Shown piece by piece: positions 23,164-27,625 of a DNA stretch of 64,000 nt (the stretch's first letter is position 1; each line of letters begins with the position of its first letter). A model generated the notes under the pieces. That model searched no databases. It was not told where the DNA came from and saw only the letters and a list, made by a program, of their open reading frames with translations. The stretch lies in contig JAFRJX010000004.1 of assembly GCA_017432025.1 (NCBI GenBank), positions 1,028 to 65,027 of the forward strand, in the 5' to 3' direction. The translations under genes and the position numbers were made by a program. Source of the stretch: Candidatus Saccharimonadota bacterium (lineage in GTDB: Bacteria; Patescibacteriota; Saccharimonadia; Saccharimonadales; Saccharimonadaceae).

Positions 23164-23964
23164 ATGGATAACATTGCTCAAGATATTTTCGAAAACGTCT
23201 GGTTTAAGCGGATTTTTTGGTCGCTCATCGTCATTATTGTGAACACTTTGTTTTATAGCATTGTGTCACATCTTATTTCTCGTCGTGAGAAAAAGAATTC
23301 TCGTGTCTTTTCGAACAAAAAGAACCGCACCTATCTCAAGATGCTAAAAAGTATCATCCGCTACGCTCTCATTATCGCTTCCGTTCTTGCTATTATGCGC
23401 ATTTTTGGCATTGATATCAGTTCGATGCTCGCCGGCGTCGGCATTGTTGGTGTCGTGATTGGTTTTGCCGTCCAAGACGCATTAAAAGACATTATCAAAG
23501 GCTTTGATATCATCTCGGACAATTACTATGCCGTTGGCGACATTATTAAGTTTAACGGCCAAACCGGCAAAGTCCTTTCTGTCGGTCTAAAAACCACTAA
23601 AATCCAAGACGTCCTTTCTGGTAACATCGTCAGTATCGCTAACCGCAACATCGAACTCGTCGAAGTGATTTCTGGCGACATCTTGATTGATATTCCACTT
23701 CCGTATGAGCTCAGTGTCAAAAAAGCCGAAGCCGTTTTGAAAGAAATCGTCACTAAAGTTGAGAAGGATCCAGCCATTACGTCAACTCAGATTCTTGGCC
23801 TTACCACGCTCGGCGAATCGGCTCTGATTTACAAAATTAAACTCGCCTCCACCCCTGAACAAAAAGGCCAAGCCCGCCGCGACGCACTTAAAACTATCGT
23901 CGAAACTCTCGAAGCCCACAAGATCTCGATCCCATACAACCAGCTCGACGTTCATCAAAAATAA
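23164..23964 (+). CDS. MscS-family mechanosensitive channel
   Basis: AGVGIVGVVIGFAVQDALKDII, VGDII, VGLKTT, IANRNI, IPYNQLDV. Confidence 0.92.
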   Translation: MDNIAQDIFENVWFKRIFWSLIVIIVNTLFYSIVSHLISRREKKNSRVFSNKKNRTYLKMLKSIIRYALIIASVLAIMRIFGIDISSMLAGVGIVGVVIGFAVQDALKDIIKGFDIISDNYYAVGDIIKFNGQTGKVLSVGLKTTKIQDVLSGNIVSIANRNIELVEVISGDILIDIPLPYELSVKKAEAVLKEIVTKVEKDPAITSTQILGLTTLGESALIYKIKLASTPEQKGQARRDALKTIVETLEAHKISIPYNQLDVHQK

Positions 23965-24023
23965 TATAAGCATTTTCTTTTCTGTTAAAAATATGCTAAA
24001 CTAAATCTATTAAAGCGTTTTTA

Positions 24024-24170
24024 GCAGCTATCAACTGCGAGCTGACGGAAGAAAGGGAAACTGATTAGAACCGTTCGTGAATCCGCGTGAGTGATTAATT
24101 AAGTGCCGAATTATCGGAAATTGGATGGTACCGCTCTAAGGAGTTCCAATGCGAAAGCATTGGATTTTTT
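24024..24170 (+). promoter_or_regulatory. ileS T-box riboswitch (ultrashort Stem I, Ile specifier ATC, antiterminator/terminator)
   Basis: Stem I GCAG-ctATCaa-CTGC (24024-24038); Stem II-like GAGC...CGGAAGAA...TAGAACCG; T-box GGA-TGGTACC-GC (bulge 24126-24132); terminator TCCAATGC-GAAA-GCATTGGA-T6 (24145-24170); directly upstream of ileS. Confidence 0.85.
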
Positions 24171-24187
24171 AATAATAAGGAGTCAAT

Positions 24188-27130
24188 ATGAAATATAAAG
24201 CAGGTGAACGTCGGAAAGCCACCGTTTACGAAAAAGCCGTCTGCGAATGGTGGAAGAAGAACAAAACCTTCGAAAAATCCGTTGAAAGCCGGTCAGTCGA
24301 CAAATCTTACGTCTTTTATGACGGCCCTCCGTTTATTACTGGCAACCCACACCACGGTACGCTTCTTAGCTCCATCGTGAAAGATGCCGTGCCACGTTTC
24401 TGGACCATGAATGGCTACCGCGTTGAACGTAGGTGGGGTTGGGACTGCCACGGTCTTCCAGCCGAAAACTTCGTTGAGAAGCAACTTGGCATCACCGATC
24501 GTCGTGATATCGGCACCAAATGGTCACTTGAAGACTATATTATCAAGGCTCGCGAATCCATGGTCGCGAATTCTGAAACTTGGCGCTCTACCATCGACCG
24601 CATTGGCCGTTGGGTGGATTTCGACAATGCTTACCGCACGATGAACAAGGACTTCATGGAATCGGTCTGGTGGGCCTTTAAACAGCTCTACGAGGCCGGT
24701 AAAATCTATGAAGGGCGAAAAGTATTAATGTATGATACAAAGTTCGCTACGCCGGTTTCTAAGGCCGAAGTCACGATGGACAACGACGCCTACCAAACTG
24801 TCACTGACCCATCTGCCTACGTCAAATTCAAAGTTAAAGATAGTGATGAATACTTCCTCGCTTGGACCACGACTCCTTGGACCTTGCCTGGCAATCTCTA
24901 TCTCGCTATCAATCCTGATCTAGATTATGGCGTTTATGAAGTAAATGGCGAGAAACTGATCGTCGCTCTTGAGCGTGGTAAAATCCTCTTCGAAGGACAG
25001 AAGCCATTAAAAGCTATGAAGGGTAAAGCCCTCGTTGGCAAAGCTTACGAACCGATTATTAAAGTTGCTGACGGCCTCTTCGATTTAGGTCTCCGTGGCG
25101 ACAAGGGAACCGTGGCAAGGAAAGATACCTACACCGTCCTCCCAGGCGACTTTGTTTCCGCCGAAGATGGTACCGGCATTGTCCACTGTGCGCCTGCCTA
25201 TGGTGAAGACGACTTTGCTCTCGCCAATAAGCACGAAGTCGATTTCGTCGACTGTCTTGATGAAAATGGCTACTACTTACCAGAAATGGCCACCGAACTC
25301 CATAAACTTGGCGTTCGCGATACCGATGAACACGGCATCCAAGCCTGGGCCGGCAACAAATTCATCGCAAAATGCCTCGAAGACAAGGGAATCATCTGGA
25401 AAATCGAATACATTCAGCACGAATATCCATTTAACCCTCGCTCGAAGGAGCGCATCATGTACCGCGCCTTCCCATCTTGGTTCTTTGATGTTGAAGGCCA
25501 AAAGACCATGATGCTTGCCGAGAACGAGAACATCAACTGGTTCCCAGAGCACTTAAAGCACGGCCGCTTCGCCAAGAACATCGAGCAAGCTCCAGATTGG
25601 AATCTCTCGCGTGATCGCTTCTGGGCCACCGCTATGCCGGTCTGGAAGGGCGACAAGGGAAGCATCCGGGTTGTCGGCTCCTACAAAGAGCTCGAAGAAC
25701 TCTCTGGCAAGACCTTAAATGATTATCACCGCCCATGGGTTGATGAAATCACCTTCGATATCGACGGTGAGCACTTCACTCGTATCGAAAAGGTTCTCGA
25801 CTGTTGGTTTGAATCTGGCTCTATGCCGTTTGCCCAGATGCATTATCCGTTCGAAAATAAGAAGAAATTTGAAGCCAACTATCCAGCCGACTTCATCGTC
25901 GAATACGTCGGTCAGGTCCGCGCTTGGTTCTACTATGTCCACACTGTAAACACCGCTCTTGCGGAGATTGGTGCCTTCGGCGACAAGGCTAAAAACGGTG
26001 CGAAAAACGCCTACAAGAACGTCATTACCACTGGTACACTTGCAGGCAACGATGGCCGTAAGATGAGTAAATCTCTCGGTAACTTCACCGATCCAAACGT
26101 CTTAATGGATCAATTCTCAGCCGATTCGCTCCGCTTCTTACTTCTTTCGAGCCCGGTTCTCTCTGGCGAAGACTTCGCTCTGCTTGATAAAGACGTCTCC
26201 GACGTCAACCGCAAGCTCGCGATGCTCTGGAATGTCTATGACTTCTTCACGACTTACGCTGCCGTCGACGGCATCGATAGTGACGATTTGAAGCTCGACC
26301 CGAAGCATCCGCTCGACCTCTGGATCCTCTCCCGTATGTACCAACTCCGCGGCGAAATCACCACTGGTATGGAAGAGTACAACATTCCAAAGGCTTTGGA
26401 GGGTGTCCTTCCATTTATCGACGACCTCTCAAACTGGTATGTCCGCCGCTCTCGCCGTCGTTTCTCTAAGAACGACGATGAGTCCGATAAAATGCAAGCC
26501 TACGCAACTCTTCACTACGTTTTAATCTATACTTCGAAGATTCTTGCTCCGTTTATCCCGTTCTTAACCGAAGAGCTCTATCAAAAGATGACCGGCAAAA
26601 ACGAATCCGTCCACCTCTTAGACTGGCCGGAAGCTGGCGTCATTGATACCGCCATCCTCGATGAAATGGCCCACACTCGCGCCATCATCACCGATGCACT
26701 CGCTCTTCGCATGCAGAAGTCCGATACCGAGGAGCAAATCAAGGTCCGCCAGCCACTCGCCTCACTTACTTATACCGGCGATAAGCTCGACGATTTCTAT
26801 GAACAAATCATTATGGACGAAGTCAACGTTAAAAAAGTTGAATGCGGTAAAGAATTTGTGCTCGACAAGACCTTAACCGACGATTTGAAGAGGGAAGGGC
26901 TCGCCCGCGACATCATCCGCGCCGTCCAGTCCGCCCGTAAAAACGCTGGCCTCAGTGTCGACGACCACATTAAGCTCTCTATCTCGGTCAATCCACCAGA
27001 GGGATTCGCGGATCTCATCCGCACCGAAGTCCTCGCCGATGATATCAAACAAGGTGAGAACTACGCCTACGACGAAGTCGCGAAGATTGCTGGCGAAAAC
27101 GTCACCATTTCGCTCGAAAAAGTCGCCTAA
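24188..27130 (+). CDS. ileS: Isoleucine--tRNA ligase (type 2)
   Basis: DGPPFITGNPHHGT, GWDCHGLP, AWTTTPWTLP, GTGIVH, SRDRFWAT, KMSKS; no C-terminal Zn finger of type 1 enzymes. Confidence 0.97.
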   Translation: MKYKAGERRKATVYEKAVCEWWKKNKTFEKSVESRSVDKSYVFYDGPPFITGNPHHGTLLSSIVKDAVPRFWTMNGYRVERRWGWDCHGLPAENFVEKQLGITDRRDIGTKWSLEDYIIKARESMVANSETWRSTIDRIGRWVDFDNAYRTMNKDFMESVWWAFKQLYEAGKIYEGRKVLMYDTKFATPVSKAEVTMDNDAYQTVTDPSAYVKFKVKDSDEYFLAWTTTPWTLPGNLYLAINPDLDYGVYEVNGEKLIVALERGKILFEGQKPLKAMKGKALVGKAYEPIIKVADGLFDLGLRGDKGTVARKDTYTVLPGDFVSAEDGTGIVHCAPAYGEDDFALANKHEVDFVDCLDENGYYLPEMATELHKLGVRDTDEHGIQAWAGNKFIAKCLEDKGIIWKIEYIQHEYPFNPRSKERIMYRAFPSWFFDVEGQKTMMLAENENINWFPEHLKHGRFAKNIEQAPDWNLSRDRFWATAMPVWKGDKGSIRVVGSYKELEELSGKTLNDYHRPWVDEITFDIDGEHFTRIEKVLDCWFESGSMPFAQMHYPFENKKKFEANYPADFIVEYVGQVRAWFYYVHTVNTALAEIGAFGDKAKNGAKNAYKNVITTGTLAGNDGRKMSKSLGNFTDPNVLMDQFSADSLRFLLLSSPVLSGEDFALLDKDVSDVNRKLAMLWNVYDFFTTYAAVDGIDSDDLKLDPKHPLDLWILSRMYQLRGEITTGMEEYNIPKALEGVLPFIDDLSNWYVRRSRRRFSKNDDESDKMQAYATLHYVLIYTSKILAPFIPFLTEELYQKMTGKNESVHLLDWPEAGVIDTAILDEMAHTRAIITDALALRMQKSDTEEQIKVRQPLASLTYTGDKLDDFYEQIIMDEVNVKKVECGKEFVLDKTLTDDLKREGLARDIIRAVQSARKNAGLSVDDHIKLSISVNPPEGFADLIRTEVLADDIKQGENYAYDEVAKIAGENVTISLEKVA

Positions 27131-27577: not shown

Positions 27578-27599
27578 AATTTCAAGCCATAAATTACAA
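27578..27599 (+). repeat. 22-nt motif, copy 1 (copy 2 at 59691-59712)
   Basis: AATTTCAAGCCATAAATTACAA versus AATTTCTAGCCATAAATTACAA (21/22 identical). Confidence 0.8.
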
Positions 27600-27625
27600 A
27601 AACCGAACACTTTGTTCGGTTTTTT
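27598..27625 (+). terminator. Intrinsic terminator
   Basis: AACCGAAC-acttt-GTTCGGTT followed by a T run. Confidence 0.8.

Follow-up and report, generated by a model that had tools for sequence, protein, structure and literature searches.

T-boxes with an intermediate or ultrashort Stem I have been described as translational T-boxes, "mostly identified in Actinobacteria" (PMC7583486). The same account gives a kinetic reason: a transcriptional T-box has to bind its tRNA quickly, ahead of the arrival of RNA polymerase at the terminator, and depends for this on the elbow-binding Stem I platform, so that a truncated Stem I would be affordable only under translational control, which is reversible (PMC7583486). 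The TBDB database paper likewise names a truncated Stem I "class II translational"; this class was sought in Actinobacteria only, in addition to class I matches with a truncated Stem I. A 2026 review still gives the ultrashort ileS T-box as a translational class. The solved structures are those of actinobacterial ileS T-boxes (PDB 6UFG and 6UFM; PMC7583486, PMC12990946), and the class has members in M. tuberculosis, M. smegmatis and N. farcinica. Full-text literature searches on T-boxes together with Saccharibacteria, Patescibacteria or the candidate phyla radiation (CPR) returned nothing relevant, and older primary T-box papers may mention a few transcriptional ultrashort ileS leaders.

Here, we describe an ileS leader in a 64,000-nt stretch of DNA (the window) from a genome of 859 kb, in eight contigs and 97% complete. 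By published description, the actinobacterial class II ileS leaders resemble it in several respects: Stem I is truncated, has no elbow platform and presents AUC in its apical loop; Stem II (with its S-turn), the IIA/B pseudoknot, Stem III and an A1-bulge-A2 discriminator are retained; and the regulated enzyme is a type-2 IleRS. Nevertheless, there are two distinguishable differences. The host phylum is Actinobacteria for class II, whereas it is Saccharibacteria (CPR) for the window leader. The class II leaders end in a Shine-Dalgarno (SD)/anti-SD sequestrator, whereas the window leader has an 8-bp terminator followed by U6 and a free SD. Since the sequestrator was looked for and is absent, the window leader lies outside the actinobacterial translational class. 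With the canonical T-boxes of RF00230 (B. subtilis tyrS and glyQS) it shares a terminator 5' arm formed by the A1 3' strand, the U-tract, the UGGN-NCCA pairing, a purine after the specifier, a K-turn-like base, Stem II, IIA/B and Stem III. It differs from them in Stem I, which has only 4 bp; missing are the specifier internal loop, the AG bulge and the distal loop of a long Stem I, and with them the tRNA-elbow platform, so that there is no tRNA-elbow contact. The window leader is a member of the T-box family without a Stem I platform.

Architecture of the ileS leader

The element lies in a gap of 223 nt that is flanked by an MscS-like gene (23164-23964) and an open reading frame of 980 aa (24188-27130). 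Its features, in window coordinates, are as follows.

23994-24002, + strand: extended -10 promoter TGCTAAACT, with the TGnTAnAnT motif kept in related leaders
24009-24170, + strand: T-box leader, comprising Stem I, Stem II, the IIA/B pseudoknot, Stem III, the antiterminator and the terminator with U6
24014-24043, + strand: ultrashort Stem I, with a 3-bp base AGC/GCU, an internal loop, a 4-bp helix GCAG/CUGC and a 7-nt apical loop CUAUCAA
24030-24032, + strand: specifier codon AUC (Ile), invariant at loop positions 3-5 and followed by the conserved purine A24033
24044-24075, + strand: Stem II, with the lower helix GACGG/CCGUU, an S-turn-like AAGAAA/AUUAGAA internal loop and a short capped upper helix (matched by Rfam)
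24076-24096, + strand: Stem IIA hairpin CGU-GAAUCC-GCG and IIB pseudoknot (from pairing and covariation)
24101-24119, + strand: discriminator part 1, with the purine string AAGUG (RRRxG), Stem III CCGA-AUUA-UCGG and then AA
24120-24150, + strand: antiterminator, with A1 AUUGGA/UCCAAU, the 7-nt bulge UGGUACC and A2 GCUC-UAAG-GAGU (Rfam alignment)
24145-24170, + strand: intrinsic terminator of 8 bp with U6 (terminator scan)
24177-24182, + strand: SD AAGGAG, 5 nt 5' of the ATG (24188) and 7 nt 3' of the U-tract
24188-27130, + strand: ileS, encoding a type-2 IleRS of 980 aa, the regulated gene (Pfam and TIGR00392)

A TGnTAnAnT motif stands 8-14 nt 5' of the Stem I base in all 19 related leaders checked, and transcription would start near 24008-24010, about 5 nt 5' of Stem I. 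The internal loop of Stem I carries GA on its 3' side and is K-turn-like. In most relatives this base reads 5' GCG-UUU-GA and 3' GA-GC; the 5' GA is UA in the window species and a few others, and the 3' GA is AA in some, so that the kink motif of the window leader may be degenerate. Stem IIA forms a hairpin at 24076-24087, whose loop bases 24081-24084 pair with 24091 and 24093-24095 to give the IIA/B pseudoknot. The discriminator (in full AAGUG-CCGAAUUAUCGG-AA) has AAGUG at 24101-24105 and the CCGA/UCGG stem at 24106-24117. The antiterminator is built from ATTGGA (24120-24125), TGGTACC (24126-24132), GCTC-TAAG-GAGT (24133-24144) and TCCAAT (24145-24150). The terminator hairpin TCCAATGC-GAAA-GCATTGGA (24145-24164), written also UCCAAUGC-GAAA-GCAUUGGA, is followed by T6 at 24165-24170.

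The first-pass annotation had recognized a T-box beginning at 24010, with a 15-nt Stem I. The T-box stands, with its start corrected to near 24009, after the extended -10; Stem I is ultrashort as claimed, although it is not a single hairpin, its paired part consisting of 4 bp plus the 3-bp base. The ATC in the Stem I loop, Stem II, the CCGA/TCGG Stem III, the antiterminator and the mutually exclusive terminator with T6 are all present where that annotation had placed them. Its view that an Ile T-box is wired here to an intrinsic terminator and not to an SD sequestrator was likewise borne out by the free SD, the 8-bp hairpin and the U6.

Two other roles for parts of this region were considered and rejected. 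One is an interaction of the true SD with the AAGGAG of A2 (24138-24143) or with the 5' strand of A2, but this loop sequence is not conserved in relatives. The hairpin might terminate the upstream MscS-like gene, but it sits 3' of the conserved promoter and overlaps A1.

Identity as a T-box and the two conformers

At gathering thresholds, Rfam reported no T-box in the gap. In E-value mode, RF00230 aligned from end to end over 24009-24151 with 40.3 bits (E = 8e-8 for a 291-nt stretch and 5.7e-8 for the whole genome), below its gathering threshold of 93 bits. Seven nucleotides stand in for 78 Stem I model positions in this alignment, and it is because Stem I is nearly absent that the score falls below the cut-off. 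A leader scoring 40 against 93 bits is consequently missed by standard annotation. It is the sole T-box match of the RF00230 search in the 859-kb genome, in agreement with our own search for an A1-UGGNAYC-A2 core pattern.

Two genes for tRNA-Ile(GAU) are present in the genome, each with A73 as the discriminator base and with an encoded CCA. The ACCA end of this tRNA is complementary to the bulge UGGU and its GAU anticodon matches AUC; AUC-A precedes ileS, so the specified amino acid agrees with the gene. Three features have been called indispensable, namely the purine string that flanks Stem III (RRRxG-Stem III-AA), a bulge of 7 nt and a G.U pair at the foot of A2 (PMC7583486). All of these discriminator hallmarks are present in the window leader, and the G.U pair is found in 24 of 24 genus leaders as well. 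Stem I consists of 4 bp and a 7-nt loop in all relatives, both in the genus and in the order. We regard it as almost certain that the element is a genuine T-box.

The computed energies are -7.1 kcal/mol for the antiterminator and -11.5 kcal/mol for the terminator hairpin. Six bases (24145-24150) are common to the A1 3' strand and the terminator 5' arm; thus, the two structures are mutually exclusive, and because the more stable terminator shares the A1 bases, the default state would be OFF. The SD pairs with nothing in either conformer, which makes control of translation initiation unlikely in the window species. The minimum free energy of the whole leader shows no extra stability over shuffled sequences (z = -0.2). 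Sites with a hairpin and a U-tract are enriched in the window genome (39 found against 24.7 +/- 5.0 expected). About 470 nt 3' of the ileS stop, a perfect 12-bp hairpin AAAAACCGAACAAAGTGTTCGGTTTTT with A5/T5 flanks (27598-27624) looks like a bidirectional intrinsic terminator, indicating that signals of this kind are in use in the genome. Judged from these sequence features, the leader most likely attenuates transcription.

The synthetase encoded downstream

The 980-aa ORF contains the Pfam domains tRNA-synt_1, Anticodon_1 and, at the C-terminus, DUF5915, and it scores 758 bits against TIGR00392 (ileS). Its best PDB matches, at 557-600 bits, are 8c8u, eukaryotic cytoplasmic IleRS and 1ile, which we take to be type 2 or eukaryote-like enzymes. 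The matches to 1ffy and 8c9e, presumably type 1 IleRS, are weaker (246-282 bits), as is that to 8wnf (178 bits). This contrast in scores by chain group, together with the presence of DUF5915, identifies the IleRS as type 2, as had been proposed from the sequence at first pass. The homologue search returned Saccharibacteria sequences only. The titles of the close relatives read Candidatus Saccharibacteria or Ca. Nanosyncoccus, and most of these sequences derive from metagenomes of the ruminant gut, in keeping with the CPR host assumed in the same annotation.

Conservation and loss within the genus

Among the close relatives, the leader is present at 24 of 80 ileS loci; a genome search supplied further genus leaders beyond these 80 loci, and ATC is invariant in all 34. 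In the alignment of the 24 terminator-type leaders (alignment A1), 97.7% of the cells are paired and 16 pairs show compensatory change, a result not reached in any of 500 shuffles; register-shifted controls gave 29-36% paired. Covarying pairs occur in Stem I (two of four), the lower helix of Stem II (four of five), Stem III (three of four) and the IIA/B pseudoknot (two of four). In the pseudoknot, the pair 24084-24091 is C-G in 16 leaders, U-A in seven and U-G in one, and the pair 24081-24095 takes four pair types.

The terminator is present in 24/24 of these leaders, with stems of 6-9 bp, loops of 3-6 nt and U5-7. The U-tract lies 15-25 nt from the ATG with the SD in between, which is the layout of the window. 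One pair of the terminator stem that is not dictated by A1 swaps among C-G, G-C and U-A across the 24 leaders.

The leader is absent from the other 56 of the 80 species, which implies that this control is dispensable. At 45 of these 56 loci (within L017-L092), a TAnAAT box stands 5-9 nt before the ATG and there is no SD; from its sequence, a start of the form TAnAAT-N5-9 looks like that of a leaderless mRNA. The midpoint-rooted IleRS tree has at least nine well-supported changes of leader state, pointing to repeated loss of the leader in the genus. At L048, a decayed T-box remnant is left in the ~50 nt before the ileS ATG: Stem I has given way to another hairpin, and the start codon follows directly on the 5' half of Stem II (CCAGCGGAAGAAAGGGAG).

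A sub-clade of the genus (L004, L006, L009, L012, L074, L079 and L082) has a long-range helix in which ACCGCCCGC..GGUUCU pairs with AGAAC..GGCGGGAG. In most of its members the GGGAG of this helix is the SD, followed by U5-AUG. By its sequence, this helix could possibly be a dual terminator and sequestrator, intermediate between transcriptional and translational T-boxes.

Distribution across the order and the CPR

A covariance model (R1; 145 positions, 31 pairs) was built from 25 leaders without the terminator. Full-length R1 matches were found in 326 of 401 genomes, representing 209 of 255 genera of the same order, usually one per genome. For 29 of the 30 best matches, ileS begins no more than 1.5 kb downstream, as the next gene or past one small ORF; at L121, no ileS was found over that distance. 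We aligned 90 leaders of the order, for which 96.9% of the cells are paired, against 74.5% in shuffled alignments, with 28 of 31 pairs compensated; as the alignment was fitted to R1, its pairing is somewhat inflated, and slid controls gave 29-48%. Covariation reaches 4/4 pairs in Stem I, 5/5 in the lower helix of Stem II, 4/4 in Stem III, 5/6 in A1 and 4/4 in A2. One Stem I pair is U-A in 47 leaders and C-G in 43. AUC is invariant in 90/90, which with the genus set makes 124 related leaders.

A phylum-wide R1 search of 401 genomes gave matches in 121, about 99 of them outside the class, among ~376 genomes of other CPR classes. The leaders inspected in these other classes have Stem I hairpins of 4-6 bp. 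Their specifiers are AUC before ileS, GUC before valS, GAC before aspS and, in one case (L223), AAC; the bulge is UGGU with the Ile and Val specifiers and UGGC with Asp and Asn, fitting the discriminator bases. In 35 of 40 such leaders, four or more consecutive T occur within 70 nt, and a single genome may have up to three T-boxes with an ultrashort Stem I. The valS, aspS and AAC-type leaders are among L129, L131, L134, L139, L141, L142, L145, L146, L207, L209-L211, L213, L215, L218-L220, L223 and L226.

The expression platforms differ while the aptamer is shared. We classed the 90 order leaders by the segment that serves as partner for the bases immediately 5' of the U-tract. In 82, from other genera of the order (among L095-L122 and L147-L206), the terminator is nested: its 3' arm captures the loop of Stem III together with the adjoining 3' strand, leaving A1-bulge-A2 folded on top (in L110, for example, AAUCACUUCUUUUG pairs with CAAAAGAAGUGAUU). 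These leaders share with that of the window the aptamer family (R1 scores of 84-151 bits), ileS, AUC, the ultrashort Stem I and a U-tract output. Their terminator takes Stem III, whereas that of the window and its genus takes the A1 3' strand, and Stem III has only 4 bp. Our script called five of the 90 canonical, including the window genome and one congener; the call for L162, whose U-tract lies 57 nt downstream, is probably a misclassification, and that for L174 may reflect an unrelated stand-alone hairpin. All seven of the other genera of the same family that were examined have the nested type (L095, L096, L101, L102, L106, L110, L117, L179, L183 and L206). From this distribution, the canonical terminator of the window genus looks derived from the nested type.

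Proposed mechanism and competing explanations

The reading that best explains these observations, and in our judgement a very probable one, is that the leader senses tRNA-Ile and, as a T-box, attenuates the transcription of ileS. Its tRNA binding, charge discrimination and termination are all deduced from the DNA. AUC in the apical loop would pair with the GAU anticodon of tRNA-Ile. Since the distal platform of Stem I is absent, this codon-anticodon helix would presumably draw its support from the S-turn of Stem II and from the IIA/B pseudoknot, by analogy with the solved actinobacterial ileS T-boxes. When the tRNA is uncharged, its 3' ACCA would pair with UGGU of the bulge; Stem III and the purine string would then lock the A1/A2 antiterminator, and RNA polymerase would read into ileS. 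When the tRNA is charged or absent, the 8-bp terminator (-11.5 kcal/mol) with its U6 would win the 3' strand from the weaker antiterminator (-7 kcal/mol), and transcription would halt ~20 nt before the ileS start codon.

Given the kinetic argument of PMC7583486, we counted the kinetics of an attenuator without a platform against the attenuation reading, along with the unremarkable folding energy of the whole leader, the U in place of G in the 5' GA of the K-turn-like motif and the lack of the leader in 56 of 80 species of the genus. The hairpin could instead act on ribosome access and not on RNA polymerase, as in the translational T-boxes of Actinobacteria; in reviews the ultrashort Stem I has so far been tied to translational control, and the sister sub-clade within the genus does bury its SD (GGGAG) in an alternative helix. 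However, the SD of the window is unpaired in both conformers, 7 nt beyond the U-tract, and the hairpin with U6 is a textbook intrinsic terminator in a layout kept in 24 species, so that we hold translational control to be very unlikely here. A leader that has gone deaf to tRNA, a decaying relic acting as a constitutive attenuator or terminator, would fit the loss of the leader at least nine times in the genus, the truncated remnant at L048 and the deviating K-turn-like motif of the window species. Against such decay, the leaders that are kept have AUC, UGGUACC, the G.U pair, the purine string and all helices intact, with compensatory changes maintaining the helices; moreover, a constitutive terminator before an essential single-copy aminoacyl-tRNA synthetase gene would be harmful. 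This too we consider highly improbable.

A different question is where the leader came from. Cultured Saccharibacteria live on Actinobacteria, and the first-pass annotation had suggested a hybrid, possibly acquired together with the type-2 ileS from an actinobacterial host. The confirmed type-2 IleRS and an aptamer type that agrees with what reviews describe for Actinobacteria are both consistent with a recent joint acquisition. Yet the same aptamer occurs in 209/255 genera (326/401 genomes) of the order, and leaders of the same design, including those of valS and aspS, occur in ~100 genomes of other CPR classes, which argues for an old, vertical presence in the CPR. With a spread across the order and the phylum, any transfer must be ancient, and its direction could be either way; we therefore think a recent acquisition very improbable, and the idea of a one-off hybrid does not hold. 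The architecture is common outside Actinobacteria in the genomes themselves, an outcome that the first-pass annotation had named as telling against its novelty, though we found no catalogue or paper that says so.

Implications for T-box diversity

Taken across the CPR, the tRNA-sensing attenuator of the window would be one case of a wider class, a proposal that we favour with some reserve: minimal T-boxes (~135-170 nt, with an ultrashort Stem I and no tRNA-elbow contact) acting by transcription termination on ileS, valS, aspS and probably other genes. Such a class would combine a stable aptamer with a freely rewired platform (nested, A1-capturing or SD-containing), and the leader would sometimes be lost for a leaderless promoter. 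If this is true, the window leader is the simplest natural test case for whether co-transcriptional tRNA sensing needs a Stem I platform; at ~160 nt and with a canonical terminator, it is a compact and easily tested model. An ultrashort Stem I before a terminator in hundreds of CPR species means that the kinetic argument of PMC7583486 needs revising. Possible explanations include a slow or paused polymerase, a high local tRNA concentration and capture via Stem II. The window leader is also one of the few identifiable regulatory RNAs in the reduced genomes of the CPR. Threshold-based Rfam annotation and the TBDB search for class II in Actinobacteria only miss a large share of T-box diversity.

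Further observations at related loci

Two leaders of other CPR classes, L127 and L132, have no U-tract. In L127, the A1 5' strand and UGG find their complement further downstream, which is a different kind of platform.

The contig of L072 (CAVDHS010000030.1) is titled Bulleidia sp.; it encodes an IleRS 71% identical to that of the window, preceded by the leaderless promoter typical of the genus, and it probably belongs to Saccharibacteria, having been mis-binned into a metagenome-assembled genome of Firmicutes.

At L095, L097, L101 and L110, of the same family or order, a small ORF of ~180-330 aa stands between the T-box and ileS, and its sequence appears GNAT-like. NCBIfam has a model (NF040702) of IleRS fused to an N-acetyltransferase domain, a fusion which suggests a recurrent functional link between IleRS and N-acetyltransferase.
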